A stretch of DNA of 64,000 bases from Candidatus Latescibacterota bacterium (GTDB taxonomy: Bacteria > Latescibacterota > UBA2968 > GCA-2709665), in contig OZ250150.1 in assembly GCA_965237675.1 (NCBI GenBank), forward strand, positions 1,728,001-1,792,000, given 5' to 3'. The position numbers and the translations under genes are program-made. The notes under the pieces are model-generated. The model was given only the letters and a program-made list of their open reading frames with translations, was not told the origin of the DNA and searched no databases. This document shows positions 2,937-59,276 of the stretch, one piece after another; position 1 is the first letter of the stretch; each line of letters begins with the position of its first letter.

Positions 2937-3071
2937 CCGTGGATCGTGCGGTTCCACGATACGCGACAAGGAAGCCAATATTTCCGTGCGACCCGGCGCC
3001 CGAATTCCCGCAACCTGTTTCCGGGACAATACACTCATGGTTCTTTCTTCAGGTGCAGGAGGTGGACTGAA

Positions 3072-4106
3072 TTGTTCGAACTCGTTGTTTCGGTAAGCAC
3101 CGTAATTGTCGTCTCAGCAATCTGCTCTCTTTTCGAGGCGGTACTCTACGCCGTTCCCGTCAGCTACATTGAAAGCCTCTCCCAGAGGGGTGGCGTCTCC
3201 GGCAGGATCTTGAAGAACCTGCGTATGCAGAATGTGGATCGTCCCATTTCGGCCATCCTTTCCCTGAATACCATTGCGAATACCGGCGGCGCTTTTGTGG
3301 CCGGCGCGGCGTTTATCAAGGTTTTCGGAGGGCAGTGGGAGCATTATTTCACCATTTTTATCACACTGTCCGTCCTGGTCCTCTCGGAAGTCATCCCCAA
3401 GACCATAGGCGTGGTCTATAATCGATCCCTGGCGAAATTTATCGCGATTCCAGTCCAACTCCTGGTCTGGGTCTTATTTCCCTTTGTCGAGATGTGCCGG
3501 CTGGTGACCCGGACGTTTTCAAAGGGCCGGGCAAGCCAGGAGGTCTCCGAGGAAGAGATCACCGTTATGGCGCGTATGGGTCGACGGACCGGGGCCATAC
3601 AGCCGGATGAAGCACGCGTCATGCAGAACATCCTTTCTCTCAAACGCAAGACCGCGAGGGACGTGATGACACCGCGAACGGTCGTATTCGCGCTGAGCGC
3701 CGATCTGACCGTGGAACAGGCCCAGAAAGAGGCGGGCGTCTGGCCGTACAGCCGCGTTCCCGTTTACGAGAATGAATTCGAGGATTTGATCGGCGTCGTG
3801 ATGCGTCGCGATGCATTCAATGCGTTGACGGATGGGCGTGGGCAAACGCCTATCTCGGAACTGATGCATCCGGTTCACTTTGTAACCGAGACGGTCTCGC
3901 TGGACCGCGTTCTCGAGATGTTCCTGGTACGCAAGCAGCACCTCTTTGCGGTGATCGACGAATATGGCGGGCTGGCCGGGATCCTCACGCTGGAAGACGT
4001 GCTGGAAGAGATTCTGGGCAGGGAGATCGTGGATGAGTCCGATACCGTCACGGACATGCGGGAACTCGCGCGTCGCCGCCGCCGGCAGGTTGCTGAGGGC
4101 GAGTAA
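3072..4106 (+). CDS. CNNM/DUF21-CBS domain membrane protein (hemolysin/CorC-like)
   Basis: In-frame TTG at 3072 after GGAGGT; SAICSLFEA, SEVIPKT, DVMTPR, YSRVPVY, VIDEYGGLAGILTLEDVLEEILG motifs. Confidence 0.9.
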   Translation: MFELVVSVSTVIVVSAICSLFEAVLYAVPVSYIESLSQRGGVSGRILKNLRMQNVDRPISAILSLNTIANTGGAFVAGAAFIKVFGGQWEHYFTIFITLSVLVLSEVIPKTIGVVYNRSLAKFIAIPVQLLVWVLFPFVEMCRLVTRTFSKGRASQEVSEEEITVMARMGRRTGAIQPDEARVMQNILSLKRKTARDVMTPRTVVFALSADLTVEQAQKEAGVWPYSRVPVYENEFEDLIGVVMRRDAFNALTDGRGQTPISELMHPVHFVTETVSLDRVLEMFLVRKQHLFAVIDEYGGLAGILTLEDVLEEILGREIVDESDTVTDMRELARRRRRQVAEGE

Positions 4107-12495: not shown

Positions 12496-14499
12496 GTGAC
12501 CACCGATTCGAACCAGGTTGCGTGGGAGACGGTTATGCAGCAAGCACAACAGGATTCACACCCTGAAACGTCAGTGGCCCAGGAGCGACGGGGCGTAACC
12601 GTGCGTGCGGTCGCCATCGGTCTTGGCGTGGCCCTTTTCATTCAGGGATGGGGCATTTTCTCCAGCCGGGTGATCCGGTCGTCCGGCGTGACGTCGGGTT
12701 TTCTTTCGCCAGCCCTCTTCATTGCGATCCTGCTTGTACTGTTCGTCCTGAATCCCCTCCTGAAACGGGTCCTGCGGTCTCGTGGGCTGAACCTTGCGGA
12801 GATACTTACGATTTTCGCGATGGGGCTGATGGGCGGCGCTCCCATCGCTGCATTGTATGCCTTTATCACGATTCCCTATTACCTGGCCACTCCCGAGAAC
12901 CAGTGGGGCAACCTCCTTCACCCCCACCTGCCTTCCTGGGTCGCGCCCCTCGACGTGGACGGCGCCGTCACACTTCTCTTCAACGGTTTGCCGGACGGTC
13001 GGGGGACGGTTCCCTGGGGTGCGTGGGTCGTGCCCATGTTCTGGTGGGTGCTGCTGTTCTGTGTGCTGGGGTTCGCGGCGGCCTCGCTTGCGGTTGTACT
13101 CCGGAAACAATGGGTGGAACACGAGCGGCTGCGGTACCCGGTCCTGGAACCGATCGTGGAAATGGCCAGGGGATCCGACACCGACGCTTGGTGGCCGCAG
13201 TTCGCCCGGGGTAAGCTGTTCTGGTTCGGCACGGGGATCGCGTTCGTGTTTATTTTCTGGAATGCGTTGCCCTGGATCTCACCGGCCTTTCCCGAGATGC
13301 CGGTTCGGGGACGGGTGTATGCCTTCTTCGGGCGGGATATGCCGCCGATGTTCAGCTATATCGATCCGTTCACCTTCGCGTTTTCCTATTTTGCAAATCT
13401 GGATGTCCTGTTCAGCGTCTGGTTCTTCTTCGCGGTGTTCGTGCTGGAATTCGGGATTTTCAACCGGCTGGGCTACAGCATCGGCGGGCGCGGCGACCGG
13501 TATGGTTCCTACGACGCGGCGTCGAGCTGGCAGGGTCTTGGCGCGTTCTGCGTTTTCGTGTTATTCGGACTTTGGATGGCCAGGCGCCATCTGAAAGACG
13601 TAGCGATGAAGGCGTGGCGGTCGGACCATCCCGTGGACGATTCGCGCGAGATGCTGTCGTATCGTACCGCGGTTGTGGGCATTGTGGTGGGTATTGTATT
13701 CACGGTCGTGTGGCTGAATCGGGCTGGGATGGACCTGCAGATGGCGATTCCACTGGTGGCGATGCTGTTCATTCTCTACATCGGAGTCGCGCGGATCATC
13801 GCCGAGTCGGGCCTGTTGTATGTGCAGGGGCCGATGACGGCGCAGAGCTTTTCGGTGTATCTGCTCGGCGCCAAAGCGGTGTCGCCGTCGAGTTTGACCA
13901 CGCTTCTGTTTTCCTATCCGATCCACGCGAATTCGACGTCGCAGATGTCGCACGTAGCCAAGGTGGCCGAAGGGATACGGGATCGGGGAAGGCGGCTGTT
14001 CTGGGCGGTCGTCCTGTCGTTCCTGGCGACGACCATAGTTGTGATCGTTGGGACGCTCTACCTGGGCTATGAACGGGGCGCCGAGAATTTCGGACACGGT
14101 TTTATCTGCGGGGGCGTGCACAATTTTCCGGATACGGTGAGCAAGATCAAGGAGCCATTCGACGTCGATTGGAATCGGATTATGTTTTTCGGTATCGGCG
14201 CCGCGGCCATGGCGGTCCTGACGTTCCTCCGCTACCGGTTTCCGTGGTGGCCGATTCATCCGGTCGGGTTCGCGATTATGGGGACGGATCTGGTACGGAA
14301 TTTTGCGTTGACGTTGTTTCTGGCATGGTCGTGCAAGTCGGTTATCCTGCGGGTGGGCGGGAACTCGCTGTTTCGACAGGCGCAGCCGTTTTTTCTTGGC
14401 CTGCTCGTAGGACACGTGCTGGGGATAACGGGTGCGTTTCTCGTGGATATGTTTATGTTTCCCGGGGCCGGACATAGCATCCACCCGTGGATTGAATAG
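12496..14499 (+). CDS. DUF6785/DUF6784-like polytopic membrane protein (OPT-like transporter candidate) A
   Basis: Many hydrophobic helices; YYLATPENQW, QWVEHERLRYP, WWPIHPVGF, PFFLGLLVG motifs shared with 19259-21226. Confidence 0.8.
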   Translation: MTTDSNQVAWETVMQQAQQDSHPETSVAQERRGVTVRAVAIGLGVALFIQGWGIFSSRVIRSSGVTSGFLSPALFIAILLVLFVLNPLLKRVLRSRGLNLAEILTIFAMGLMGGAPIAALYAFITIPYYLATPENQWGNLLHPHLPSWVAPLDVDGAVTLLFNGLPDGRGTVPWGAWVVPMFWWVLLFCVLGFAAASLAVVLRKQWVEHERLRYPVLEPIVEMARGSDTDAWWPQFARGKLFWFGTGIAFVFIFWNALPWISPAFPEMPVRGRVYAFFGRDMPPMFSYIDPFTFAFSYFANLDVLFSVWFFFAVFVLEFGIFNRLGYSIGGRGDRYGSYDAASSWQGLGAFCVFVLFGLWMARRHLKDVAMKAWRSDHPVDDSREMLSYRTAVVGIVVGIVFTVVWLNRAGMDLQMAIPLVAMLFILYIGVARIIAESGLLYVQGPMTAQSFSVYLLGAKAVSPSSLTTLLFSYPIHANSTSQMSHVAKVAEGIRDRGRRLFWAVVLSFLATTIVVIVGTLYLGYERGAENFGHGFICGGVHNFPDTVSKIKEPFDVDWNRIMFFGIGAAAMAVLTFLRYRFPWWPIHPVGFAIMGTDLVRNFALTLFLAWSCKSVILRVGGNSLFRQAQPFFLGLLVGHVLGITGAFLVDMFMFPGAGHSIHPWIE

Positions 14500-14517
14500 G
14501 CTGGCGTGCGAGGGTGA

Positions 14518-17500
14518 ATGATGTTTAATCGTCTCAAGAGGGTTCTTCTGGTTCTGCTGACGCTCGGCGTCCTCTCGCTCGTGGTGGTGTACGATCCCGA
14601 GGACGTGTCCGACGTGATACGGGATGCGCTCCATATCCGGCAGGTGGCGCCCCCCGAGCAAGCCCGGGGGGATCTCTCGGCCGAGGATCGGGCCGTTCGC
14701 CGGGTTGTGGATGCGATCACCGAAGAGGAGGTCCGGTCTCACGTGGCGGCATTAACCCGGATGCCGTCCCGCGTGGTGGGGTATGGCGGGGAGCGGCAGG
14801 CGCGGGATTACGTCCGGTCGCAATTCGAGGCGCTGGGTCTGGAGCGAATTACCACGGAAACGTTCGACGTGACCGTGCCAATCGACGCGGGAGGCGCGCT
14901 GAAGTTGACGGCAACCGGGGAGGAGATGCCCATTTACTGCCTCTGGCCTAACGATGTGCGTACCTCCACGCTTCCGGCCGACGGGGTTGGCGGGCCGCTG
15001 ATCTACGGGCGAAAGGGGGAATTCTCGGATTTCAACGGGTCGGTTGTGGACGGCAGCGTCGTGTTGATGGACTTCGGCTGCGGGCAGAATTACGTGAACG
15101 CACTGGCCCTCGGCGCCAAGGCGATTCTGTTCTTCGACGACGGCAACGTGACGCGCGGGGAGGCGGAGGACAAATTCCTGGAGGTGCCCGTGAATGCGCC
15201 CCGGTTCTGGGTAAACCGGGAGGATGCGCAGCGCCTCCTGAAGTGGATCCGGCGGGGGGATGCGCGGGTCCACCTGACGGGCAGGATGGACTGGAAGACG
15301 GTGGAGGCGGCAAATGTGTACGGGTATCTGCCCGGATCCGGGGAGCGCATTCCGGGAGGGACGGGCCGCAGGTGGAAGGACCGCCTGATTGTGGTGGGCG
15401 CGTATTACGACGCGATGTCGGTGGTGCCGGCGCTCGCTCCCGGCGCGGAAAGCGCCTCGGGAGTTGCCGCGTTGCTTGAGGTGGTCCGGTCGTTGAAGCA
15501 ACACGGTTCGAGGTACTCCTTCCTCTTTCTGGCGACATCCGCGCACTTTGAGGGATTGACGGGAATCAACGATTTCCTCTATCGACATTCCCGGCGAAGC
15601 GATTATTTCAGGGACCGGATTCCCGAAGGGGACCGCATTGACTTCAGCCTGTTCGTCGGGCTGGATCTGTCCAGCCGCAGCAGACAGGTGGGCGGATTTG
15701 CGATGGGAACATTCTACAACGCCGGCAAGGGAACGGACGAATACCTGAAGAATCTGCTGACGCCCTATTCGCACAGGTTCCGAGAGTACGCAACTGCGCT
15801 TTTCCAGGGTGAGGAGCGCTACGTGGACGTGGTGGCTCCGGCCAAGCGCCCCTGGACGTCGTTTATGCCGGTCCCCCTGGCCCTGGAGAGCGAGGCGGCG
15901 GTATTCGTGGGTCAGGAGGCCATGACGCTGGCGACCCTGTATGACGGCCGCGTCCGCACGGATACGCCAGCGGATCGTCCGGAGAAGATGGCGTTCGACC
16001 GGTTGACCGACCAGGTGCGTTCGGTGGCTGCAATGATGATCAGGGCGGGTAACGATCCGGGCTTTTTCCGGGAGACCCAGCTTCTCCTGATGGACCGGGG
16101 ACATCGCCTGGCCGGGCGTGTTCTCTGGTTCGACCGGGACGTGGACTTCGCGATTCCAAGGGTGCCGGTGCCGGGCGCGCTGGTGACGTACAAACAGCCG
16201 GGGCCCGGTAGCCTGGCCGGCGTTCGGACGCTGATGGTCACCCAGACCACCCGGGGCCCGATCTATGAAGCTCCGGACTCGAAAGGGGCGCTGTACGGTT
16301 CGCGGAACGCGATTGCGCAGACCGGTCGGTTTGCATTCGACATCGTAAGAAACCGGTTTTCCAACCAGATACTGGCTTACGAGATCGACGGAGAGGGGCG
16401 GATCGTTTCGGCCCCGGATATGGGAAGAGAGGGCGCCGGTCCGGATGGGAAAAACGGGAAATTTCCCCTGGTGCAGAGATACGGCTGGTGGGACAACGAG
16501 ATGATGAGTGTGCTGTTCAGGTGCCGGTCGCTGAGCCTCTTCGAAATTGTGGATTCGAGCTATCTCTCGGTGCTGGATCATATGAAGGTGCTGGGGCGGG
16601 ACAACAGCGAGCCGATCGAGTACGGTTTTCGGTACGTGGCCAACCAGGGCCGGAAGGAGGGAAAGGTCACGCAGGCGTCGGTGGCATTCGCTCCGCCGGG
16701 GGAACGAATCAAGATCCTGATGAGCAGCGGGCTCTTCGGAATCAAGTACCTGCTCATCAACGCGCCGGATGATCTGCTGACCGATCCCGTCGCTCCGCGG
16801 CAAGTGGATGCAGCCACGGTGAAACGTTCCATGGGAACAGGCTACGTCCCGGACGGGAACGTGATTTCCCTGCCTTCGTACAGGGCGGCGCGGGATATGT
16901 GGATCGTGGATGACGTGCGGATGAAGCAACTGGCTCGATACGGCGTGGAAAACCAGCGGCTTTCACGGCTTCACGATGACGCACGCGCGTCTCTTTTGGA
17001 GGCGAAACGCCACCTGGATAATCGCAGCTACGACCGGTTCATCGCAGCGGCCAGGAAAGGTTGGGGGCTGGAGGCGCGCGGCTACCCCGAGGTCAAGGAG
17101 ACGGCCAACGACACCGTGCGGGGCGTCATTTTCTATTTCGTCCTGTTGCTGCCGTTTTCGTTCTTTTGCGAGCGGCTGTTTTTCGGGTTTCCCGACGTCC
17201 AGCGACGGATCGTCGGATTCGCCGCGATTCTCGTCGCCATGTTCCTTGCGCTGCGGTGGGTGCATCCCGCGTTTCAGCTGTCCGGGTCTCCATACATCAT
17301 CTTTCTTGCGTTTGTGATTCTGTGCCTGGGAGGGATGGCGATGGTGATTGTGGTTTCCAGGTTCGCGGATCAGGTCAGGCGTTTGAAGCAGGCGGCTACG
17401 GGCGTGTACGAGGAGGATGTGGGGCGGATTTCCGCAACGATCGTGGCCTTTACACTGGGCGTATCGAATCTGCGAAAGCGCCCGTTGCGCAGCGGGCTGA

Positions 17501-19233
17501 CGGCCGTCACACTCACGTTGTTGACGTTCACGGTGCTTTCGTTCACGTCAGTTCAGACGTATCTGCGCTTTTATAAGCTGCCGAGGGACAACCGCCCGCC
17601 CTACCAGGGCGCGCTGGTGAGAGACCGCAATTGGAGAGGGATGCAGCCTTCCGTGCTGACCTACATCCAGAGCCATTTTGGCGGTTTCGCCAGGGTGGCG
17701 CCCCGGGCATTCTACATTTCCGAAAAGCGGGGCGAGCGTGCGTATATCGACTTTGAGGAACCGGTAAGCGGCCGGCGGAGTTTCGCGAACGGTTTGTTGG
17801 GTGTGACGCCACAGGAACCGAAGATAATGGGTATGGACCGGCTGCTGGCGGCTGGCCGGTGGTTCATGGAGGGAGAACGCCACGCGGTCATCCTGCCTGG
17901 AGAACTGGCGGAACTGGTGGGGATCTCTCACGCGGACGTGGAAGCCGGGCGGGCGCGGGTGCGTATGTTGGGGGTCGAGCTTGCCGTTATCGGCATCCTG
18001 GATTCCAGGGCGGTCGACAGGCTGGCGGACATGGACGACGAACGGTTGACGCCCATCGACACCACAATGGAGACAGCGGGGACGAGCGACTGGCGCAACC
18101 TGAGCCAGGACCCGAGGTTGATGGGAGCGGAGCCGATCGAGGCGTTTATCCACCTGGACGCCAGCAATACGGCGTTGCTTCCGTACGAATTCGTCGTTGA
18201 AATGGGGGGCACGCTCCGGTCGATTGCGATCACCGATTTCAGAGATGCGCAGGGCAACCCGAGCCCGGACGTCCGGCGGCAGATCGAAGAGTTCATGTCC
18301 CGTGTGGCGCTGACCATGTTTGTTGGGATCGGCGAAGAGGTGGCCGTCTACAGTTCGATCGGAACCACGTCGCTTTCAGGCATCGCGAATCTCTTCATAC
18401 CGCTTTTGATCGCCTCCCTGATCGTTCTGAATACGATGATGGGCGCCGTATACGAAAGGTTCCGGGAAATCGGTGTGTACTCGGCCGTGGGGCTGGCGCC
18501 GAGCCACATTTCCGCGCTGTTTCTCGCCGAAGCGGCCGTGTTCGCCACGCTGGGCGCGGCGTTCGGTTACCTGATCGGCCAGGCCGTGGCGATGTTTCTG
18601 TACGAGCGCGGTGCGCTGGGTGGGTTGTCGTTGAACTATTCGTCGCTTTCGGCCGTTTCTTCAACGCTGCTGGTGATGTTGGCGGTGTTCCTGTCCACCC
18701 TCTATCCGGCCAGGAAGGCCGAGCAGATGTCCGTGCCCGACGTGACCCGGCGGTGGCAGTTTCCACATCCGAAGGGAGACGAATGGACTTTTGACTTTCC
18801 GTTTACACTGGCCGGATCGGAAGCCCTTGGGATGTATACGTATCTCTTTCGGTGTTTCGAGTCCTTCGGCGAGGGCTCTCTTGGCAGGTTTGTTTCGCGG
18901 GATGTGCGCTTTCAGTCCGAGCCACTTTCGGCTGGCACGGGGTACAAGATCGCGCTGCGGATGTGGCTGGCTCCCTACGATATGGGCATCAGCCAGGATG
19001 TCCAGATGAATGCGATTTCCACGGGAGAACACGAGATATACCGCATCGAGGTTCGAATCCATCGCCTGAGCGGAGACGTGAACTCCTGGCAGCGGGTGAA
19101 TCGAGGCTTCCTGAACGACATCCGCAAGCTCTTTCTGGTATGGAAAACAATGCCTCCGGAAACAAAGACGGACTATGCCCGGCAGGGCCAGGCGGAACTG
19201 GAGACGTCGGCGGGCCGGGAGGTCGTGTCTTGA
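14518..19233 (+). CDS. Fusion of a degenerate M28 peptidase-like domain and a MacB/FtsX-like permease
   Basis: N-terminal anchor; IVVGAYYDA...APGAESASGVAALLE (M28-like); SNLRKRPLRSGLT TM1, GRWF periplasmic motif and ERFREIGVYSAVG...LFLAEA FtsX motif. Confidence 0.85.
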   Translation: MMFNRLKRVLLVLLTLGVLSLVVVYDPEDVSDVIRDALHIRQVAPPEQARGDLSAEDRAVRRVVDAITEEEVRSHVAALTRMPSRVVGYGGERQARDYVRSQFEALGLERITTETFDVTVPIDAGGALKLTATGEEMPIYCLWPNDVRTSTLPADGVGGPLIYGRKGEFSDFNGSVVDGSVVLMDFGCGQNYVNALALGAKAILFFDDGNVTRGEAEDKFLEVPVNAPRFWVNREDAQRLLKWIRRGDARVHLTGRMDWKTVEAANVYGYLPGSGERIPGGTGRRWKDRLIVVGAYYDAMSVVPALAPGAESASGVAALLEVVRSLKQHGSRYSFLFLATSAHFEGLTGINDFLYRHSRRSDYFRDRIPEGDRIDFSLFVGLDLSSRSRQVGGFAMGTFYNAGKGTDEYLKNLLTPYSHRFREYATALFQGEERYVDVVAPAKRPWTSFMPVPLALESEAAVFVGQEAMTLATLYDGRVRTDTPADRPEKMAFDRLTDQVRSVAAMMIRAGNDPGFFRETQLLLMDRGHRLAGRVLWFDRDVDFAIPRVPVPGALVTYKQPGPGSLAGVRTLMVTQTTRGPIYEAPDSKGALYGSRNAIAQTGRFAFDIVRNRFSNQILAYEIDGEGRIVSAPDMGREGAGPDGKNGKFPLVQRYGWWDNEMMSVLFRCRSLSLFEIVDSSYLSVLDHMKVLGRDNSEPIEYGFRYVANQGRKEGKVTQASVAFAPPGERIKILMSSGLFGIKYLLINAPDDLLTDPVAPRQVDAATVKRSMGTGYVPDGNVISLPSYRAARDMWIVDDVRMKQLARYGVENQRLSRLHDDARASLLEAKRHLDNRSYDRFIAAARKGWGLEARGYPEVKETANDTVRGVIFYFVLLLPFSFFCERLFFGFPDVQRRIVGFAAILVAMFLALRWVHPAFQLSGSPYIIFLAFVILCLGGMAMVIVVSRFADQVRRLKQAATGVYEEDVGRISATIVAFTLGVSNLRKRPLRSGLTAVTLTLLTFTVLSFTSVQTYLRFYKLPRDNRPPYQGALVRDRNWRGMQPSVLTYIQSHFGGFARVAPRAFYISEKRGERAYIDFEEPVSGRRSFANGLLGVTPQEPKIMGMDRLLAAGRWFMEGERHAVILPGELAELVGISHADVEAGRARVRMLGVELAVIGILDSRAVDRLADMDDERLTPIDTTMETAGTSDWRNLSQDPRLMGAEPIEAFIHLDASNTALLPYEFVVEMGGTLRSIAITDFRDAQGNPSPDVRRQIEEFMSRVALTMFVGIGEEVAVYSSIGTTSLSGIANLFIPLLIASLIVLNTMMGAVYERFREIGVYSAVGLAPSHISALFLAEAAVFATLGAAFGYLIGQAVAMFLYERGALGGLSLNYSSLSAVSSTLLVMLAVFLSTLYPARKAEQMSVPDVTRRWQFPHPKGDEWTFDFPFTLAGSEALGMYTYLFRCFESFGEGSLGRFVSRDVRFQSEPLSAGTGYKIALRMWLAPYDMGISQDVQMNAISTGEHEIYRIEVRIHRLSGDVNSWQRVNRGFLNDIRKLFLVWKTMPPETKTDYARQGQAELETSAGREVVS

Positions 19234-19258
19234 ACGCACACGCGAGGGAAAACGCGGT

Positions 19259-21226
19259 ATGCCGAGACCTGCCGGGCAACGCGAAGCGGCGGTAGCCGGC
19301 ACGAAGTCGGCTTTGCGCGGGGTTTCGGTGCGCGCCCTGAGCGTTGGTCTGGGTATTGCCGCCCTGCACAATTTCTGGAGCCTGCACTCGCTCTATATCA
19401 TCCGGGGATCATGGCTTAACCGGACGCACTTCCCCATGGGCGTGTTCGTGCCGTTCCTGATCCTTGTTCTGACGGTGCCCGCCCTCCGGCGGTTCGTTCC
19501 CAGGATGGCGTTGTCCGGCCCGGAACTCCTGGTGGCGCTGTGCGCGGGCCTGGCGGGTGGGATGGTGCCCACGTTCGGTCTGTCCACGACCTGGATCGGG
19601 ATGCTGGCGATCCCCCACTATCTTGCCACGCCCGAGAATATGTGGGGAGAGTACCTGCTGCCCCACGTACCCGGCTGGATGTTGCCTTCAAACGCGCAGG
19701 GGGCCATGAGATGGCTCTTTGAGGGTCTGCCGCCCGGTGAGGGGATTCCCTGGCACGCGTGGGCGGCCCCGATGTTCTGGTGGACGGCGCTGCTAGGCGG
19801 GATGGCGCTGGTTTCTTTCTGCACGGTCGTGGTGTTGCACCGTCAGTGGTCGGGGCACGAACGCCTGGCCTATCCCATTCCCGCGGTGGCCGTGGATATG
19901 GCGGAGGGAGCCGAGGGCAGAGGCGAGTGGGCCGGGTTGTTGCGGAACCGGTTGTTCATTGCGGGGATGCTTGCCGCGCTGACGATCAAGGTCTGGAACC
20001 TGGTTCCGGCCTTTGTTCACGGATTTCCGATGATCCGGTTGTTTCACCAGCAGTTGTGGGTGCACTTTACGCAATACACACAGGTCCATGTGAGCCTGAA
20101 TTTCTATACCATCGGGTTCGCGTATTTGACCGGCCTGGACCTGCTGCTGAGTATCTGGCTGTTCCATCTGTTTTACATTCTGGAGATCGCGGCTTTCGCA
20201 CGGGTTGGGCTGGGGATTGCCGGATTTTCCGGCGGGGTCGTATCCTGGCAGGGCGGCGGCGCGATGATGTGCTACGTGGGCCTGGCGTTATGGACCGCCC
20301 GGGGGCACCTCAAACGCGTGGTTCGCCGGGCACTGGGGCAGGGGGGCGGAGCGGACGACGCCGGGGCGCTGATGGGCTACAGGTGGGCGGTTTCGGGTCT
20401 GATTCTGGGGGTGGCCTTTGTGATCTGCTGGTTGCGGATGGCGGGCATGGGTCTTCCCCTGGCCACGGCGCTGACCGTGTTCCTGTTCACAAGCTACCTG
20501 GGCCTCGCCAGGGTTGTCGCGCAGACCGGCCTGCTTTACGTCAACTTCCCCCTCAGCGGGCAGGCGCTGATTCTGGGCACGTTGGGCGCGGCCTCCATCC
20601 CGGCGCCGGGGCTCACGGCCATGGCCTTTACAAACGTGTTCGCCAATGACAGCATGGGCCTGTTCATGCCGGCCTTCGCGCAGATCGCAAAGCTGGCCGA
20701 ACGGGTGGAGCGGCACCGGAGGCGTTTGGGCTGGGTTGTGGCGCTGGGCCTGTTGACCAGCATTGCGGCGTCGGTGGTGCTGACACTGTATTGGGGGTAT
20801 TTCGGCGGGGCGTACAATTTTGGAAGTATCGCGCTTTTCCGAAGGACGGTGCCCAGCGTGAACGGGTACGTAAGCCATATGCGCAGCCCGGATCCCGTTC
20901 AGGCGGCGCCGTTTATTCTCTTTGCGGCCGGCGCGGCGGGCATGGCCCTGCTGGCGTTCCTGCGATACCGGTTCAACTGGTGGCCGGTGCACCCGGCCGG
21001 GTTGGCCGTGGCCTACACGGGGTTGACGAAGCACGCTGCTTTCAGCATCTTTGCCGCCTGGATCTGCAAGTTTATCGTGATCAAGACCGGGGGGATGCTG
21101 CTCTATCGACGGACGGTACCATTTTTTATCGGGACGATCGTGGGCTATGCGCTGTCCGTCGCCCTCGGATACGTACTGGATGTGATCTGGTTCGAAGGGC
21201 AGGGGCACGCCGTGCACGCATATTGA
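19259..21226 (+). CDS. DUF6785/DUF6784-like polytopic membrane protein B
   Basis: ATG 19259; HYLATPENMW, QWSGHERLAYP, WWPVHPAGL, PFFIGTIVG; clear paralog of 12496-14499. Confidence 0.8.
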   Translation: MPRPAGQREAAVAGTKSALRGVSVRALSVGLGIAALHNFWSLHSLYIIRGSWLNRTHFPMGVFVPFLILVLTVPALRRFVPRMALSGPELLVALCAGLAGGMVPTFGLSTTWIGMLAIPHYLATPENMWGEYLLPHVPGWMLPSNAQGAMRWLFEGLPPGEGIPWHAWAAPMFWWTALLGGMALVSFCTVVVLHRQWSGHERLAYPIPAVAVDMAEGAEGRGEWAGLLRNRLFIAGMLAALTIKVWNLVPAFVHGFPMIRLFHQQLWVHFTQYTQVHVSLNFYTIGFAYLTGLDLLLSIWLFHLFYILEIAAFARVGLGIAGFSGGVVSWQGGGAMMCYVGLALWTARGHLKRVVRRALGQGGGADDAGALMGYRWAVSGLILGVAFVICWLRMAGMGLPLATALTVFLFTSYLGLARVVAQTGLLYVNFPLSGQALILGTLGAASIPAPGLTAMAFTNVFANDSMGLFMPAFAQIAKLAERVERHRRRLGWVVALGLLTSIAASVVLTLYWGYFGGAYNFGSIALFRRTVPSVNGYVSHMRSPDPVQAAPFILFAAGAAGMALLAFLRYRFNWWPVHPAGLAVAYTGLTKHAAFSIFAAWICKFIVIKTGGMLLYRRTVPFFIGTIVGYALSVALGYVLDVIWFEGQGHAVHAY

Positions 21227-21257: not shown

Positions 21258-24200
21258 ATGCGTATTCCACCGGTGTACACGGAACGGAAGGATCTCAATC
21301 TCGATACGGAACTGGTCCGAAACGGCCGGGCGAACGTCACGATCGTGGTTCCGGAAGGGCGGCTTTACGGTGGCCCGTCGAAACGCCTGCAGGCGGCTAT
21401 TCAGGCGCGGACCGGCGTGCGCGTGCCCATTGCCGAGGAAACGTCCAAGGCAGGAGCCGCGCCCATTTCCGCACACGTGATCGTGCTGGGCAACCGGTCC
21501 AGCAGCCGCACGATAGAAGCGCTCTACAACCAATACTACACGCTGCTGGATCTGCGCTATCCGGGGCCGGGCGGGTACGAGGTCCGGTCGCTTCACAATC
21601 CGTTCGGTAACGGGTACAATGTGATCTTCGTGGGCGGTAGCGATGAAGACGGTGTGTCGGCGGCAGCCGATGCGCTGGCGAGAAGGGTGTCCGAAGCGGA
21701 GGGCGAAGAAGGCGCGCTTTCGCTGGGTTGGCTGATGGAGATTGAACTGGGACGGGGGATCGCGGTACCACGGGACATCCGGGATTTTGAGACCTGGGAG
21801 GCCTCCGCGGGATACGGATCGGTGGGGTATTTCGGGTGGAACAGCATCAGCAAGCGGATGGCCATGTACTATATGACGGGAGACCCCTTCCACGCGCGGG
21901 AAGCCCTCCGGCTGGCCTTCCCGGACGATCGGGCAAAGGCAGAGATAACCGAGATCGACGGGGAACGGATCGAGAACAAGGACGAGCCGCTCGGCGGTCC
22001 CTACCACTACAACGCGCATATGATGATTCTGTACTGGGATCTGATTGAGGAAAGTCCGGTGTTTACGGATGATGAACGCCTGCGGGTGACAAACGCCTTC
22101 GCGTCTCAGTTCGGCCACGCGCAGGACCAGGGCGCGCGCAGGCAGGTGGCGGAGAATGTGCGACGCGGCGCGAGGGGTTTCGGAGACCCGCCGCGCAGCG
22201 TGGGGTCGCGGCACGGGCAGTGGTCCGCGATTTCGCTCTACTGCCTGGGGCGTTACTTCCAGACCCATTACCCGCATGAACTCTGGGAGCAGTCCATGGA
22301 GGCGGCGAGGTGGCATTTTGCATCGCTGCATCGCCACGCCTGGGTCGACGGGGAGCAGGACAATCTGTTCTGGTACAATACCGGGATGGCCCCCGTTCTG
22401 AGTTATATGCTGATTACCGGGGACCGCAAGCCGATGGATAACGGGGTGCTGGACACCCTCCTTCGCGGGCAGGAGATCCTGGCCTCGGGACGTGAGCCGG
22501 ACTGGGCGTTGAATTCGGCGTCAATCGGTTTTCTCAACAAGGCCGCCTATCTGACGAAGGACGGCCGCTACCTCGAATACCTGCGCCGTACCGGCATGGA
22601 CCTGGACGTCTTCCGGCTGGGGCAGTCCTTCTGGCCTGAGGGCGGCCTTACGGCGAAGCAGCCCACGGATCTTGTGAACAGGTGGTGCATCCATCCCATC
22701 CCGGAGCCGATGTGGCGGGAACGCGCGGGCGGATTGCCACTGGAAGAGTCCTTCCTGTTCGGAAGCTTTCGGAGCGCGGCCGATGCCACGGGCGATTTCA
22801 TCCTGGTGAAGGGGATGAACGGCGCGTCGCGTAACGCGTACCATACCTTTGTGATTCTGGAACTGCGACTGGGCGGACAGACGCTGCTGGAAGGCTATTT
22901 GAACCAGGTGCTGACCCGGTCGGACGGGACCGTGGAGCCGGCGGTGGCGATGGATTCGGCGTTGAAGTATCGGGGTGTGGTTGGAGGCGCCGCCGTGGTT
23001 GTCGGCGAAGTGCCGAGAGCGGCGTTCTGTTCCTGGCGGCGAACACTGGTTCAGCGCATCGGCCGGTACGCGTTGTTTGCGGACGAACTGACCTTTCGCG
23101 CGGACAGCGCAGAGTTGGAGGTGGAGGTCCTGTGGCAGGGCAAGGGCGCGTGGGAGGTGTTGCCGGACCGGGGCGCGGTCCGGATTCGGGATGTCGCGGA
23201 GATCCGCATGTCGGATCCGATGGAGACTGCCGTTGCTGACGGGCAGGCACGCATGGCCTGGCGGGGAATCGTGGAAAAGGGAAGCGGGAGATGCTTTTTC
23301 TCGCTGGTGGGAGGGACGGGGACAGCATGCGCGCGGCTGGGTGTCAATGCGGCGGCCCTGGCGCTGCCCGAGCCGGCGGTTGCCGCCCTGGGCGAATACC
23401 AGGGACTTCATGGAGATCTGGTCGTTCTGGCGTCCAGCCACCTCCATGGCGTCAATGCGACCGATGTCGCTTTTGGCGATCTGCTGTTCCACGCAAGCGC
23501 GCCGGTGCAGGTCGACTGGGACTTTCATAGCGGCACCCTGGAGGTGGTTGCGGGTGAGGAGGTCGAATTACGCCTGGCCGTCGCCGATCCGGGTAGCGCG
23601 CGCGTGGGCGGAAGCGTTCCCGGGGGCGGTTCGGATGACTCCGGTATGTTGACCATCGGAATCCCCGCGGGGCGGCATACGGTTTCGGGCGTGTTACCCG
23701 ATGCGGATACGATTGAAAAGGTGACCGCACGGCTCGAGGGCCTTCTGGAGCAGGGCCGCGAGGCCAGAAGGCTATCCGCGGCCGCGCCATCGCCTGTTCT
23801 GCCGGATGTACCCTCCATGGCGCCTGTTTTCGCCACCGGCGTGGGTGGTGCGGTGGTAGACCTCGTCGTCGCCGATTCTGGCGAGGAAACGCGAATCTGT
23901 GCGGCTGAGGCTAAGAATGTCCACGTGTTGTCACAGGAGGGGAAAGAACTCCGAACCCTGCGGACGGATGGTCCCATCCGTCTCCTCCACTGGTGGGCGG
24001 AGCACAACCTGCTCCTGGCGGGATGTGTGGACGAGAAGGTCATTGCGTTCGATCCGGATACGGGAGATCGGCAATGGACGTTTGTGTCCGAGGAAGACCC
24101 GGCGGTGTTCCAGGCCGCAAAACCGTACTGGTTCAAGACGGCGCCGGGGCACGCGGGCGTTCATGGACTCCATTCCGGCGTGTTCCTGGATGGCGAAAGC

Positions 24201-24974
24201 CAGGCATTCGTGGGCAGCGCCTGCACACTCGAAATACTGGATCATGATGGAAATCTCGTGAAACGGCTTCCGGTATTCTGGGGCCCGGGTTCGCGGTTTG
24301 CCCTGATGGACCGACCCGACGGCAGCATTGATCTTCTGATTGCACGGCAGCCCACGGATTCGCACGCGATGGCCGTTGTGAACAACCGCGAGTTGGACCC
24401 GAAACAGCGCGGCTTCCAAGACGTGCCGGACGGACATACGAATATAGGCGGGTGGGCGTGCATGAGCCGGAAGCACATCTTTAACGAGGATCTGGACGGG
24501 GACGGCAGGAGGGAAGTGGTCAGCGAGATCAACGGGACCTGGAACCGGGTGACGGTCTGGACGGAGGATGGGCGGGCGCTGCACAACGTCCACCTCGGCC
24601 CGGGGCAGCGCATTCCGGCGGACAACGTGCGGGATTTCGACGTTGTCGACCTGGATGGCGATGGCAGAAAAGAGCTCCTCGCGGCGCTTTCGGGCGGGCT
24701 GATACTTGCCCTCGATCACCAATGTGAGAAGGTCTGGGCAAGGCGGCTGCCTTTTCCACCGACGGTGATGGCAGGCATTGGAGCCGGGGGCGGCGCCAGG
24801 GTCGTGGCCGGCTGCGAAGACGGTACGCTGGTCGTCCTGGATGGCGGTGGCAAGGTCGTCGGGTCGGGCAGGATGACGGGGAGGCCGACCGGAATTGTCC
24901 GTGTGGATGGAAATGTCGTTCTGGCAACGGATCAGGGGGAGGTCACGGGATGGCGGGTGGATAACCGCAGGTAA
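21258..24974 (+). CDS. Large lyase-like protein with C-terminal FG-GAP/PQQ beta-propeller (paralog 1)
   Basis: YPGPGGYEVRSLHNPFGNG, WDLIEESPVF motifs; DLDGDG repeats; no signal peptide. Confidence 0.75.
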   Translation: MRIPPVYTERKDLNLDTELVRNGRANVTIVVPEGRLYGGPSKRLQAAIQARTGVRVPIAEETSKAGAAPISAHVIVLGNRSSSRTIEALYNQYYTLLDLRYPGPGGYEVRSLHNPFGNGYNVIFVGGSDEDGVSAAADALARRVSEAEGEEGALSLGWLMEIELGRGIAVPRDIRDFETWEASAGYGSVGYFGWNSISKRMAMYYMTGDPFHAREALRLAFPDDRAKAEITEIDGERIENKDEPLGGPYHYNAHMMILYWDLIEESPVFTDDERLRVTNAFASQFGHAQDQGARRQVAENVRRGARGFGDPPRSVGSRHGQWSAISLYCLGRYFQTHYPHELWEQSMEAARWHFASLHRHAWVDGEQDNLFWYNTGMAPVLSYMLITGDRKPMDNGVLDTLLRGQEILASGREPDWALNSASIGFLNKAAYLTKDGRYLEYLRRTGMDLDVFRLGQSFWPEGGLTAKQPTDLVNRWCIHPIPEPMWRERAGGLPLEESFLFGSFRSAADATGDFILVKGMNGASRNAYHTFVILELRLGGQTLLEGYLNQVLTRSDGTVEPAVAMDSALKYRGVVGGAAVVVGEVPRAAFCSWRRTLVQRIGRYALFADELTFRADSAELEVEVLWQGKGAWEVLPDRGAVRIRDVAEIRMSDPMETAVADGQARMAWRGIVEKGSGRCFFSLVGGTGTACARLGVNAAALALPEPAVAALGEYQGLHGDLVVLASSHLHGVNATDVAFGDLLFHASAPVQVDWDFHSGTLEVVAGEEVELRLAVADPGSARVGGSVPGGGSDDSGMLTIGIPAGRHTVSGVLPDADTIEKVTARLEGLLEQGREARRLSAAAPSPVLPDVPSMAPVFATGVGGAVVDLVVADSGEETRICAAEAKNVHVLSQEGKELRTLRTDGPIRLLHWWAEHNLLLAGCVDEKVIAFDPDTGDRQWTFVSEEDPAVFQAAKPYWFKTAPGHAGVHGLHSGVFLDGESQAFVGSACTLEILDHDGNLVKRLPVFWGPGSRFALMDRPDGSIDLLIARQPTDSHAMAVVNNRELDPKQRGFQDVPDGHTNIGGWACMSRKHIFNEDLDGDGRREVVSEINGTWNRVTVWTEDGRALHNVHLGPGQRIPADNVRDFDVVDLDGDGRKELLAALSGGLILALDHQCEKVWARRLPFPPTVMAGIGAGGGARVVAGCEDGTLVVLDGGGKVVGSGRMTGRPTGIVRVDGNVVLATDQGEVTGWRVDNRR

Positions 24975-24998
24975 GCTGGACAACGGTCAGGAGGAAAA

Positions 24999-27900
24999 AT
25001 GGACGCGGATCGAGGGCCGGTCGGACTGAAAATCGATACGTTGAGACAAATGCACCTGGAGACGGTGCTGGCGGCAGACCGCGAACCCGGTGGGAAGATC
25101 GTCATCGGGGAAAATCCGGAGCACCAGCGGCAGGCGCAACGCATCGTGGAATGTATTCAATCGGCCACGGGCGCCCGTCTGCCGGTCGTCCGCGCCGATG
25201 ACGCGACAGGGGGAGGCCTGCTTGACAGTCACGTGGTCGCTCTGGGAAATATGGCCGACAACCCCTTTGTCCGCTGGCTGTATCACCAGTGGTGGGCCAT
25301 AGAGGATCTCTGTTATCCCGGCGAGGGAGGGTATACGCTCCGTACGCTGCACAACCTGCTGGGAAACGGGAAGAATGTGGTCCTGCTGGGAGCCAGCGAC
25401 GAAAGCGGGCTGGACCGCGCGGCATCCCGTTTTTTGTCGCGGGTCGGCGCGGGCGAGAGGCTGAGTTTCGGTTGGCTGATGGACGTCGCGCCGGGCCCGG
25501 CCTTCGATTCTCTCGAACATCCGCCGGACGGGTGGCTTGAGGAGCGGCGGGAGGATTTTATCGGACGGGTAAGCCAGCCGCATGCCTCCGAAGCGGGGGC
25601 AGGCCACGGGATGGTTACGGAGGCGGGAAGGCAGGGCCTGGCATATCATCGGACGGGGTTCGAGGTCTATGCGAAGGCATTGCGCGAGGCGGTGGATGCG
25701 CATCTGAAGATGGGGGAGCACGGCGTGATGGCCCACTTCAACGTGTGGTGGCTTGCGGTGATCTGGGACCTGATCGAGGAGAGTCCGGTGTTTTCAGACG
25801 CGGATCGCCTGCGGATCACGCGGTATCTGCTGTGGATTATGGATTCGCAGGAGGGCGCGTACAACCCCTTCTTCCGCCAGGGGGTGGGTCACCGGATGGT
25901 GCGGCAGAACCACCAGACGCTGGTGGGTCTTTCGTCGTGGTTCGCGGGTCGATACTTCTCCACGCATTACGAAATGCCGGAGGCGGAGGAATGGCAGGCG
26001 GCGTCAGCGGATCTGTTCAAGGGGCAGGCGGAGTCCTTCAAGCCGACCGAGGATGCGAATGCCTACCAGTGGACGACACTGGACCATCTCCTGACCTATA
26101 CGCTGGCCAGCGGGGACAGGACGTACGTTGAAAACGGAAATTGCCGCCGGTCGCTGGACCAGGCGGTATTGTACTGCAACAATCTCGGGGCCATGCCGGC
26201 GTTCGGCGACTCGGGGGGATGCCAGGTACCTCCACCGGCCAGTTTCCTGGTGAAAGCGGGGCACGTACTGCGGGATGGCCGTGCGGAGTTCCTGATTCGC
26301 GCGCGATCGGACCGGGTTTCGCTTGTACACGGATTCGAGAAATATTTCTGCGATGGCCTGGAACCCGAGGCGCCCCGGGAAATGGCAGGCGTGCGGATAC
26401 TTGAGGTGGCGAAGGGATTCTACGATTTCGCCAGCGACCCGATGGCGCGCCCGTCGGAAGTAAAACCTCTCAATCTGCCGCTGGACACGGCGTTCGATAC
26501 GGTGTGTTTTCGAGAGGGTTTCGACCGGGCGGATCAGTACCTGATGCTGCACGGGATTTCCTACGGCAACCACGGGCACGACGACGGAAACACAATTGTG
26601 GAGTTCTCCGCGAATGACCGGGTGTTCCTGGTGGACGCCTCTTACACGGAGGGGCCCACCCTGAAACATCACAACGGGTGCACGGCGGTCCGAAACGGAG
26701 AGCCCTGGCAGGTGCCCGCGCTGTGCCGTCTGGAGGGGCTGGCGGACCTCGACCGTATGGGAATGAGCCGGACATCGATGGAAGTGGAATCGGGAGCGCG
26801 GTGGACCCGAAATATGGTATGGCGGGTCGGCCGGTTCTTCGTCGCCATCGATGAAATCCAGGCCACTGAAGCGGGTGCGTTCGCACTCCAATGCAACTGG
26901 CGGACGCTGGGGACGCCCACGCTGGACGGGAATCGGCTGGAGACCGTCCAGAAGGATCCGGACGACGGGCGGGAGGATCGGTTCGTTCTGGAAGGTGTGG
27001 GCGGTGACCGCATTGATATGGAGCGGGATTGGGAGGCTTTCGGGCATTGGTGGAAGGACTATCCGTACTCGGACGATTACGTCAATATCCTGCGTCAGTC
27101 CGTCAACCGCGAGATGGCGGCGGGAGACCGGCACACCTTCATCAATCTGTTTTACGCGACAAACGACACGAAACCGCTGGACGTGCGGATGCGTCGTGTT
27201 GGGGAGTCCGCGATCCTGGTGGAGGGATCGGAGGGGCGGATGCTGATCGGGACAGGCGGCGCCGACGGGACGTTTGCGGTTGGACCCGTGTCCGGAAAGG
27301 CCGACGTCTACGCGATCGGGCCGGGCTGGTTCACCCTGTGCGGGGGAACGCTGTTGCGCGGGGAAACAACGCTATTCGAAAGCGACGCCCCGGTGTCCGT
27401 TGAGTTCGACCTGGAGACGGGCGTCGGTGTGGCAGACGTATCGGAACCCGCAAACGCTGAGTTGTGCGGAGGGGTGCATACGCTCTCGGCCGGGAAACAG
27501 CGCGTGCGCCAGGCGCCCGCGGGCAGTGGCGGTATACCGGAACGTGTGTGGCGCCTGGACGATTGGCGGGCAGGCGCGGAGAAACGCGTACGGCCGGCAT
27601 CGGCGGCATCCCTGCGCCCTGTATGGTCGCGCGACTTCGGGTCGGCGGTACGATGTGTGGCGCGCAGGGGCGATGGCGTGGTTGCAGGTATGGAGGACGG
27701 GCGCGTGGTTGCATTGTGGGAGGGAGGAGAGCCCGACTGGACCTTCCGGGCGGGGGATGCGGTGCTGTCGGTGTGCGCGGCGGGGCAGGCCGGGGACGCC
27801 CGCTCACCGGTGGCGGCCGGGGCAAACGACCGGCGCCTCTATTTTCTGGAGCATGACGGCGCCGTGCGCTGGTCCCACGAGTTCGCGATCTTTCGAGGAG

Positions 27901-28697
27901 GGTGGGAGTGGTATACCCGGAACTCCTCGGTTGAACTGGTCAAGTCCGCGGACCTTCGCGGCACGGGACGGCCGGATATTCTCGCTGCGGTCACCGACCG
28001 GCAACTCCACTGTTTCGACGCGGACGGCAACAAACGCTGGAACTTCTTCATCTACGGGATCTTCGACCCCTTTTGCCTGGCGGATGTCAATGGAGACGGC
28101 CGTCCGGAGGTGATCGGCGGGCCGGGCCGGATTTCCTGCGGGGGAACGTGCTATGTGCTGGACGCGGACGGCAGCCAAATCGCCAGCAACGGGCTGGACG
28201 GTTGGCCGTCGATGCTACCGGGGTGCGACGTGTATCTGTACGAAAATGGCGACAATCTGATCGCGTGCGGTACGACCCGGTCGAAGGTTCACGCGCTTCG
28301 GCTTGACGGCGATTCTCTGACACCCCAGTGGTCACGGGAGGTGGGTGAAGAGGTGCACGCGGTTGCGGCGGTGGACGTGGACGGGGATGGGAGGCCCGAA
28401 GTCGCGGCCGGATCGGATTGTTTCTACATCTACCTGTTCGATGAAAACGGCGCCGAGCGATGGCGGCGCAACCTGGAGGCGCCCGTGCGCCGGCTGGTTG
28501 CCACCGACGTCAATGGAGATGGCCGGCCGGAAATTGTCGCCGGATGTGACGACGGGAGCGTATGGATACTGGACGGAGATGGACAGACCCTCGGTGTCCA
28601 CCGTTCAGAGGCGAAGATTCACGCCCTGACGCCCCACGGAGAAGGCCGCCTGCTGCTCGGGTGTTCGGACGGGACCCTTTCGATGCTGGGTCTCTGA
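24999..28697 (+). CDS. Large heparinase II/III-like protein with C-terminal FG-GAP/PQQ beta-propeller (paralog 2)
   Basis: AGGAGG RBS; YPGEGGYTLRTLHN, WDLIEESPVF, QNHQ, PAFGD, NHGHDDGN, HHN; DVNGDGRPE repeats. Confidence 0.8.
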   Translation: MDADRGPVGLKIDTLRQMHLETVLAADREPGGKIVIGENPEHQRQAQRIVECIQSATGARLPVVRADDATGGGLLDSHVVALGNMADNPFVRWLYHQWWAIEDLCYPGEGGYTLRTLHNLLGNGKNVVLLGASDESGLDRAASRFLSRVGAGERLSFGWLMDVAPGPAFDSLEHPPDGWLEERREDFIGRVSQPHASEAGAGHGMVTEAGRQGLAYHRTGFEVYAKALREAVDAHLKMGEHGVMAHFNVWWLAVIWDLIEESPVFSDADRLRITRYLLWIMDSQEGAYNPFFRQGVGHRMVRQNHQTLVGLSSWFAGRYFSTHYEMPEAEEWQAASADLFKGQAESFKPTEDANAYQWTTLDHLLTYTLASGDRTYVENGNCRRSLDQAVLYCNNLGAMPAFGDSGGCQVPPPASFLVKAGHVLRDGRAEFLIRARSDRVSLVHGFEKYFCDGLEPEAPREMAGVRILEVAKGFYDFASDPMARPSEVKPLNLPLDTAFDTVCFREGFDRADQYLMLHGISYGNHGHDDGNTIVEFSANDRVFLVDASYTEGPTLKHHNGCTAVRNGEPWQVPALCRLEGLADLDRMGMSRTSMEVESGARWTRNMVWRVGRFFVAIDEIQATEAGAFALQCNWRTLGTPTLDGNRLETVQKDPDDGREDRFVLEGVGGDRIDMERDWEAFGHWWKDYPYSDDYVNILRQSVNREMAAGDRHTFINLFYATNDTKPLDVRMRRVGESAILVEGSEGRMLIGTGGADGTFAVGPVSGKADVYAIGPGWFTLCGGTLLRGETTLFESDAPVSVEFDLETGVGVADVSEPANAELCGGVHTLSAGKQRVRQAPAGSGGIPERVWRLDDWRAGAEKRVRPASAASLRPVWSRDFGSAVRCVARRGDGVVAGMEDGRVVALWEGGEPDWTFRAGDAVLSVCAAGQAGDARSPVAAGANDRRLYFLEHDGAVRWSHEFAIFRGGWEWYTRNSSVELVKSADLRGTGRPDILAAVTDRQLHCFDADGNKRWNFFIYGIFDPFCLADVNGDGRPEVIGGPGRISCGGTCYVLDADGSQIASNGLDGWPSMLPGCDVYLYENGDNLIACGTTRSKVHALRLDGDSLTPQWSREVGEEVHAVAAVDVDGDGRPEVAAGSDCFYIYLFDENGAERWRRNLEAPVRRLVATDVNGDGRPEIVAGCDDGSVWILDGDGQTLGVHRSEAKIHALTPHGEGRLLLGCSDGTLSMLGL

Positions 28698-54420: not shown

Positions 54421-57993
<3,573 letters not shown>

Positions 57994-59257: not shown

Positions 59258-59276
59258 ATTGGGAAAGAGGACAAGC

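Follow-up and report, generated by a model that had tools for sequence, protein, structure and literature searches.

How three adjoining membrane-protein genes in lyase-rich surroundings might work together is the question raised by a 64,000-nt stretch of DNA from Candidatus Latescibacterota bacterium (assembly GCA_965237675.1, contig OZ250150.1, genome coordinates 1728001-1792000), the whole of which is called the window here. The three genes, which we call A, F and B, are co-directional within a long plus-strand array of genes, and had been read in an earlier note on this DNA as a glycan importer, with A and B forming a heteromeric pore and F capturing or delivering oligosaccharides. Their open reading frame (ORF) coordinates agree with the tight packing described there, with gaps of 18 bp between A and F (14500-14517) and 25 bp between F and B (19234-19258). 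The modeled structure of A is that of OPT/Yellow Stripe carriers, F joins a degenerate peptidase-like head to a MacB/FtsX-type membrane module, and F genes are paired with OPT-like genes across the phylum; our leading, still tentative, reading is that F would load or gate the carriers in an ATP-powered complex.

Carriers A and B and the fusion protein F

Both A and B match Pfam DUF6785 (2.7e-100, 336.7 bits for A; 8.3e-99, 331.8 bits for B) and DUF6784 (1.6e-23, 83.2 bits for A; 3.2e-20, 72.6 bits for B), all above the gathering cut-offs of 25 and 26.4 bits, respectively. This bears out their earlier description as DUF6785-like, divergent paralogs: they are 36% identical, and the W...ERLxYP and WWPxHPxG motifs are found in both (WVEHERLRYP and WWPIHPVG in A, WSGHERLAYP and WWPVHPAG in B), falling on the near-invariant family columns W206, E210, P215, W585, P586, P589 and G591. 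The true start of A is probably M14 at 12535 rather than the GTG at 12496, since M14 falls on a near-invariant column and is also where the closest relative, P0124, begins. For B, a longer open frame from 19175 is also available, and close orthologs align across all 655 residues.

Sequence searches of the PDB with A and B gave no match. An AlphaFold2 (AF2) model of A, based on 75 sequences and with a predicted local distance difference test score (pLDDT) of 92 and a predicted template-modeling score (pTM) of 0.92, had one significant match in the PDB, barley Yellow Stripe 1 (HvYS1, PDB 7wst/7wsr). Foldseek aligned the two with E 3e-7, probability 1.0 and a TM-score of 0.56-0.63, and VIA with Z 22.7 over 546 of 601 residues at a root-mean-square deviation (rmsd) of 4.1, the next entry being at Z 4.6. 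Comparison with OPT/YSL structures thus agrees with the likeness to OPT-type carriers that the earlier note had suspected from the motifs. In the accessible part of its source, HvYS1 is described as a proton-driven symporter that forms a homodimer via its scaffold domains, works by an elevator mechanism and has its own substrate cavity in each protomer (PMC9691689). Given the strong fold match and the thin sequence evidence, we call A and B OPT-fold carriers, that is, distant members of the OPT superfamily (TC 2.A.67) by modeled structure, and not members of Pfam OPT. The likeness covers the same fold along the whole of A, a similar size and a polytopic build, whereas identity to HvYS1 is 11-12%. 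The two families also meet in some ESM Atlas clusters that hold both PF20581 and PF03169 (11-19% of members).

The scale of the family sets it apart from other OPT proteins. DUF6785 is the largest carrier family counted in this genome, with 23 genes, next to 12 MFS_1, 3 SSF and 19 BPD_transp_1 matches; across the phylum it is found in 107 of 121 sampled genomes, expanded to at least 20 copies per genome with up to 68 first-look candidates in one genome, and the family as a whole comprises 4550 clusters at 50% identity (E ≤0.001). The genome also encodes four F proteins and two proteins of a type that we name X684, polytopic proteins of ~680-820 aa that have no Pfam family. X684 matches the DUF6785 profile with E 1.7e-6 and has the ERLPFP motif in common with it, and its nearest Atlas clusters, automatically named 'peptide transporter family', carry PF03169 on 15-33% of members; from these sequence comparisons X684 appears to be a more distant OPT-like type. 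Among the 47 genomes that have any X684-type gene, 42 have at most two. We found no literature on DUF6785, on DUF6784 or on fusions of FtsX, M28 and permease domains; the term OPT is absent from the accessible part of a 2015 Latescibacteria paper (PMC4454575), and the accessible part of a paper on sponge Latescibacterota names no transporter family (PMC12993501).

Hydropathy and the structural model give the order of parts in F as an N-terminal anchor helix, a ~840-residue periplasmic stretch, three extra transmembrane (TM) helices with many invariant residues, a MacB-type module and a C-terminal domain (Table 1). The MacB-type module comprises TM1, a periplasmic Porter/Sabre-like domain of ~270 residues and TM2-4. 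F matches Pfam FtsX at 3.8e-14 (53.2 bits, cut-off 25.5), several F homologs carry PF12704, and PDB sequence matches to YtrF and MacB were obtained at ~1e-7. The AF2 model of residues 530-1571 (pLDDT 81) matches MacB, LolC/E, YtrF, HrtB and FtsX with Foldseek E values down to 1.6e-11 and VIA Z of 12.8-14.9, and matches isolated MacB periplasmic domains with Z of 11.3-12.6 (rmsd 3.6-5.3). Domain match and model together support the presence of a true MacB/FtsX-type (type VII ATP-binding cassette, ABC) membrane module in the C-terminal half, as the description of F as a MacB/FtsX fusion had it. Other parts of F gave vaguer likenesses. In searches with the model as a whole, the beta-rich domain (residues 530-670) had weak to middling beta-sandwich matches (VIA Z 7.5-8.7), and the C-terminal domain of ~150 residues matched Bet v1-like, Aha1 C-terminal and KA1 domains with Z of 8.3-9.4, a lead toward a possible helix-grip/KA1-like fold.

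The head of F matches Pfam Peptidase_M28 at 4e-06 (27.1 bits, cut-off 21.3) over 114 of 193 model positions, and PA at 2.4e-4 (21.6 bits, under its cut-off of 23.9). In alignments to the aminopeptidases 2ek8, 2anp and 3b3t, with the catalytic and metal positions placed by what we take to be the M28 ligand numbering, the HxD motif is replaced by Y297-D298, the bridging Asp by E311 or a gap, and the EE pair by H343-F344; the two later zinc ligands lie outside the alignments. The domain is therefore degenerate, as the earlier note had stated, and the replacing residues are invariant across 22 homologs. Since canonical residues are replaced and the replacements are themselves kept in the family, the head of F is, as judged from its sequence, a conserved non-catalytic PA/M28 scaffold and not a decaying enzyme. 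Non-catalytic M28-like ectodomains are known elsewhere, for example in the transferrin receptor. Like the Nicalin-type ectodomains, F keeps the PA/M28 scaffold with its canonical zinc and catalytic residues replaced, but its match to Nicalin is very weak (E 0.078), no specific relationship is detectable, and in F the domain belongs to a bacterial protein, joined to an ABC-type membrane module.

Linkage of F with OPT-like genes

All four F genes of the genome adjoin an OPT-like gene, either DUF6785 or X684. The gene order is DUF6785-F-DUF6785 in the window, ATPase-DUF6785-F-X684 at a second locus (L020), DUF6785-F at a third (L023) and F-X684 at the fourth (L027). We gathered 80 F loci from species-representative genomes. 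At the 12 closest, with F identities of 74-91%, the order A-F-B is present in every case, so that the co-conservation of the three genes, a check named in the earlier note, holds; 11 of these loci (~90% identity) retain the whole neighborhood from the 1063-aa ORF upstream of A to the two propeller proteins downstream of B, as expected for near relatives. In other genomes, 62 F loci had 3 kb or more of sequence on each side; DUF6785 or X684 was found within 3 kb of F in 59 of these, and on both sides in 14. Twenty extra loci picked for spread comprised 10 with DUF6785-F-X684, six with F-X684, two with DUF6785-F, one with DUF6785 3 kb away and one with neither. The adjacency, the gene order and the short gaps hold from 91% down to ~35-40% F identity.

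The linkage is tightest for X684. In 18 genomes assembled in at most eight contigs, every one of the 34 X684-type genes has an F gene within 3 kb, and for 33 the distance is no more than 550 bp; 34 of the 51 F genes in the same genomes have an X684-type neighbor. DUF6785, F and X684 were each not found in any of the 13 sampled genomes of one family (f10), and each was found in nearly all other sampled families. The OPT-like/F pairing is kept across the phylum, and the window trio is the local form of an OPT-like-F-OPT-like module. Part of the DUF6785 family is in this way hard-linked to a MacB-type protein, a linkage that, as far as we know, has been reported for no OPT protein.

We also noted variants of this arrangement. 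At one locus with an F 75% identical to that of the window (L038, 7989-16855), the DUF6785 genes on either side of F are recent duplicates of the A-like type and no B-like gene is present, from which we conclude that the downstream partner has been exchanged in evolution. In metagenome-assembled genomes (MAGs) labeled Planctomycetota (L084, 6005-15394, and L085), a 3129-aa F homolog with an added Big_5 domain is followed by an 858-aa X684-type gene. Open frames of 2179 and 2201 aa at two further loci (L109 and L110) were considered as F-DUF6785 fusions and rejected, the genes lying in separate or overlapping frames.

ATPase, substrate and possible mode of action

Pfam matches to an ABC ATPase, a solute-binding protein, SusC/D, TRAP or MFS were absent from the 39 window ORFs scanned (26 + 13), in agreement with the list of missing transporters in the earlier note. 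Among the same ORFs, there was no match to a SusC-like TonB-dependent receptor or a SusD-like lipoprotein, the pair by which a SusC/SusD-type polysaccharide utilization locus is recognized, and the window holds no binding-protein-dependent ABC importer set (solute-binding protein, BPD_transp_1 and ATPase); all 57 ABC_tran matches of the genome lie outside its coordinates. A genome-wide check for an orphan MacB/LolD-type ATPase was positive. The L020 module, near genome coordinate 3.15 Mb, is headed by a 262-aa ABC_tran gene directly upstream and on the same strand, with its best NCBIfam scores, all below the curated cut-offs, to LolD, FtsE, DarD, DevA, MacB and YbbA, ATPases that are partners of MacB-type permeases. 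The order ATPase-DUF6785-F-X684 recurs in three of the 20 extra loci (L111-L113, orthologs of L020). The closest paralog of this ATPase in the genome adjoins a small FtsX-like gene, and six loci (L071, L081, L082 and L118-L120) have orthologs of that FtsX-like/ATPase pair a few kb downstream of F-X684.

The most conserved stretch of F, E1313-H1330, surrounds the short helix between TM2 and TM3 (~1315-1323), which we take to be the ATPase docking site in MacB-type proteins, and is invariant in 22 aligned homologs including all four paralogs of the genome. The absence of an ATPase thus stands for the window itself, but given the ATPase at the head of the L020 and L111-L113 modules and the invariance of E1313-H1330, the machine is probably not ATPase-free. 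F resembles the MacB, LolCDE, FtsEX, YtrEF and HrtBA systems in its 4-TM FtsX module, its periplasmic Porter/Sabre-like domain and the short TM2-TM3 helix, and in that a LolD/FtsE-clade ATPase adjoins modules paralogous to the window trio. It differs from them in ~990 extra N-terminal residues (anchor, PA/M28-like head, beta-sandwich, stalk and three TM helices), in the ~150-aa C-terminal cytoplasmic domain, in the lack of an ATPase gene at the window locus, and in a constant partner that is an OPT-fold carrier and not an adaptor, outer-membrane channel or hydrolase.

The 17 DUF6785 neighborhoods of the genome are mostly catabolic, with genes for heparinase II/III-like proteins, GFO/IDH/MocA oxidoreductases, PhyH dioxygenases, xylose-isomerase-like barrels, amidohydrolases and aminotransferases. 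For A and B, the local context makes a glycan-derived substrate plausible, and glycan specificity is only modestly supported. The genome as a whole has very large expansions of two of these families, with 45 matches to the heparinase II/III C-terminal domain and 78 to PhyH dioxygenase; no PhyH match was found across 14 control genomes. At another locus (L011, genome 43205-63204), two DUF6785 genes stand among three homocysteine S-methyltransferase genes and a 491-aa protein with an OpuAC domain of the betaine-binding type, which may be a methylated-amine cluster with a binding protein beside OPT-like carriers.

We tentatively favor, with confidence a little short of even, a reading in which F and the OPT-fold carriers would form an inner-membrane complex for import rather than export. 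F would sit in the inner membrane bound to carriers of the A/B type, as a MacB-type mechanotransducer driven by the LolD/FtsE-clade ATPase encoded at the L020 module (~3.15 Mb). Its periplasmic head would capture a ligand and then load or gate the carriers, which would move the ligand across the membrane. A and B would be secondary carriers, possibly proton-coupled, as barley YS1, with the same fold, is a proton-coupled transporter of the elevator type. In the window, the ligands would most likely be small products of the neighboring lyase-like enzymes. A prediction of the complex between residues 31-667 of A and F fragments 860-1025 and 1281-1420 gave no verdict (score 0.00), which speaks neither for nor against binding.

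Several observations weigh against this account. Pfam OPT (PF03169) had no match to A, B or three X684-type proteins at E ≤10, and one paralog matched it at E 0.006, below the cut-off; alignment with hhalign of a DUF6785 profile (75 sequences) to eight OPT proteins of the same phylum was weak (probability 2.4%, E 0.019), though colinear over 418 columns, with 'LRKQWVEHERLRYP' placed on the OPT 'LRRxLIVxExxxLxYPEG'. The locus counts overstate independence, since many of the loci belong to genomes related to one another. A cognate ATPase is encoded only at L020 and L111-L113; the window has none, nor have the 10 kb around F at the 12 close orthologous loci, and any working of F like MacB therefore rests on an ATPase in trans, which for the window we assume to be that of L020. 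The glycan link is similarly limited. Heparinase-like genes lie within 10 kb of six of the 17 DUF6785 loci, compared with 2.3 expected by random placement (P ~0.02), a modest enrichment; PhyH genes near these loci showed no excess (four of 17, 3.5 expected). Deeper relatives of the F module adjoin TPR, pyrimidine-synthesis, EPSP-synthase and similar genes, and not carbohydrate-active enzymes; a glycan link is no general trait of the module. Of the proposed glycan uptake, then, the mild enrichment of context stood up, and specificity, resting on that context, did not. On the favorable side, RNA libraries of two studies hold contigs with 90-99% likeness to the window that map to A, to B, to the A-F junction (13135-15301) and to the F-B junction (18915-19354 and 19038-19503). 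Most of F (~15300-18900) has no such cover, which is not evidence of silence; the contigs hint at expression and, DNA carry-over being possible, are no proof of transcription or of a single transcript.

Other explanations share parts of this evidence. A and B might be stand-alone OPT-like carriers and F an unrelated MacB-type protein that merely shares their operon or regulon. Indeed, 19 of the 23 DUF6785 genes of the genome have no nearby F, so that DUF6785 carriers can clearly stand alone, the F-flanking copies fall into several clades and not one in a quick, unrefined tree, and the synteny of the 11 loci at ~90% identity is what near relatives would show anyway. Set against these points, the adjacency, order and short gaps persist to ~35-40% F identity, X684-type genes are linked exclusively to F, and all three families are missing together from f10. 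One protein of 2120 aa (P0216) is apparently a fusion of F (37% identity over its full length) with DUF6785 and DUF6784, its parts ordered like F and B in the window; it is a single database entry known from its protein sequence. With these patterns of linkage, we consider independent functions quite unlikely. The form proposed in the earlier note, an ATPase-free importer with an obligate A/B heteromer as its pore and F merely capturing oligosaccharides, strikes us as very unlikely. It draws on the lack of an ATPase in the window and close orthologous loci and on the conserved C-terminal cytoplasmic domain of F, where an ATPase might otherwise be needed, and the dimeric state of HvYS1, which makes an A/B heterodimer conceivable, also fits it (PMC9691689, in its accessible part). 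In that same source, each HvYS1 protomer has its own substrate cavity, and a shared A/B pore is therefore not expected (PMC9691689). Modules with a single OPT-like gene are also common, the DUF6785 copies beside F come from different clades, most DUF6785 genes of the genome lie away from F, and the co-operonic ATPase of paralogous and orthologous modules and the invariant E1313-H1330 stretch speak for ATP-driven operation.

The direction and the cargo are further points of dispute. To our knowledge, every characterized MacB-type module works either outward or within the periplasm, and an ancestral F-X684 pair with a LolD/FtsE-type ATPase could be a periplasmic housekeeping machine that extracts, expels or activates like LolCDE, MacB or FtsEX, the window trio being a specialized paralog. 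That F-X684 is near-universal and found in non-catabolic contexts (TPR, PqqD-like, small FtsX with ATPase, metallophosphoesterase and pyrimidine genes) fits such an envelope or export role, as do the strict confinement of X684 to F in well-assembled genomes and its low copy number. Characterized OPT members are, as far as we know, generally importers, the window copy and several paralogs lie inside catabolic clusters, and genomes hold dozens of canonical DUF6785 copies, an expansion like that of nutrient carriers. The single solved OPT-fold relative, HvYS1, also imports, according to the accessible part of its source (PMC9691689), and on balance an outward-acting machine seems unlikely. A somewhat more open question is whether peptides or glycopeptides are carried, with the dead M28/PA head binding peptide N-termini and the OPT-like carriers importing oligopeptides, which would be compatible with our favored complex of F and carriers. 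The OPT family is named after oligopeptide uptake, M28/PA domains are aminopeptidase scaffolds, and some DUF6785 paralogs lie near genes for gamma-glutamyltranspeptidase, aminotransferases, amidohydrolases and an M14 peptidase; the 'peptide transporter' label of the X684 clusters points the same way, but automatic names are no test of function. Against peptides, the window has lyase-like and sugar-oxidoreductase genes and no peptidase adjoining the trio, and heparinase-like genes are mildly enriched near DUF6785 loci, leaving a peptide substrate somewhat doubtful.

Beyond the favored complex lies a broader proposal, which we put forward with considerable reserve: that these genes represent a new hybrid transporter class, in which one or two elevator carriers of the OPT fold would be firmly tied to an ATP-driven MacB-type mechanotransducer with a pseudo-peptidase receptor head, hydrolysis of ATP in the cytoplasm would load or gate the proton-coupled carrier from the periplasmic side, and Latescibacterota would take up organic nutrients, glycan-derived products included, chiefly through the OPT-like family. 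We know of no OPT protein that carries such products. Type VII ABC modules push substrates out of the periplasm or switch on periplasmic enzymes, and OPT carriers are known as stand-alone proton symporters. The parts come from known superfamilies, while the literature we searched showed neither type VII ABC modules in a conserved partnership with OPT-fold carriers nor a DUF6785 expansion on this scale. Such a machine would be analogous in function to TRAP and TTT systems, where a periplasmic capture domain feeds a secondary carrier, but there is no homology, and TRAP/TTT systems use soluble binding proteins and no ATPase. If the proposal is true, the compact module of three or four genes would couple ATP, a receptor domain and a secondary carrier in a new way, supply a function for two Pfam DUFs, and explain how an uncultured polysaccharide-degrading phylum takes up food without SusCD systems.

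Other genes of the window

Pfam matches agree with the lyase-rich surroundings ascribed to the trio, with DUF4962/Hepar_II_III_C and HepII_C proteins as well as FG-GAP/lambda-carrageenase-propeller giants (Table 1). The 1063-aa ORF immediately 5´ of A is a candidate new enzyme of the cluster; it was matched at 86-93% identity in 10 of the 12 close loci, and an eleventh has a partial match of 79% where its sequence is cut.

Table 1. Positions of the trio, of the parts of F and of other genes, numbered from the first nucleotide of the window
Feature	Position	Strand	Basis or remark
Gene A (DUF6785 + DUF6784)	12496..14499	+	667 aa as the ORF reads
Gene F	14518..19233	+	1571 aa; Pfam PA, M28-like, FtsX; ~8 predicted TM helices
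F residues 159-421, PA + M28-like domain	14992..15780	+	Pfam; alignments to 2ek8, 2anp, 3b3t
F residues 530-865, predicted beta-rich periplasmic domain(s) and long helical stalk into membrane	16105..17112	+	AF2 secondary structure
F residues 866-945, three extra predicted TM helices outside FtsX module	17113..17352	+	Hydropathy, model helices
F residues 994-1402, MacB/FtsX-type module	17497..18723	+	Pfam FtsX, PDB, Foldseek, VIA
F residues 1419-1546, conserved cytoplasmic alpha+beta domain (predicted)	18772..19155	+	AF2 model; weak fold matches
Gene B (DUF6785 + DUF6784)	19259..21226	+	655 aa from ATG at 19259
ORF of 1063 aa	9121..12312	+	No Pfam or NCBIfam match; immediately 5´ of A; syntenic in close relatives
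Two FG-GAP/lambda-carrageenase-propeller proteins	21258..28697	+	~1230 aa each; 31 bp 3´ of B
FG-GAP/lambda-carrageenase-propeller giants	21258-24974 and 24999-28697 (the two above), 38382-42395		Pfam
DUF4962/Hepar_II_III_C proteins	45-2936, 34994-37459		Pfam
HepII_C protein	48386-51553		Pfam
CNNM/CBS protein	2946-4106		Sole other transporter-like gene among scanned window ORFs

Within the glycan cluster, a multihaem cytochrome c gene with several CXXCH-type Pfam matches (45241-46491, minus strand) adjoins a DUF4838/GH20b-like gene. The end of the window, 53391-64000, has a GC content of 0.49-0.56 compared with ~0.62 elsewhere and looks like a mobile or defense island, with genes for an IS200-like transposase, an SNF2/NOV_C helicase (54421-57993), an HTH protein, an AAA_15/AAA_21 ATPase, HATPase_c and DUF4325 proteins, and a DUF1156 methyltransferase. 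The RNA-library runs that match the window between 11500 and 22000 carry 'sponge metagenome' or a coded organism in their organism field, and several MAGs of close relatives look sponge-derived from their record titles.

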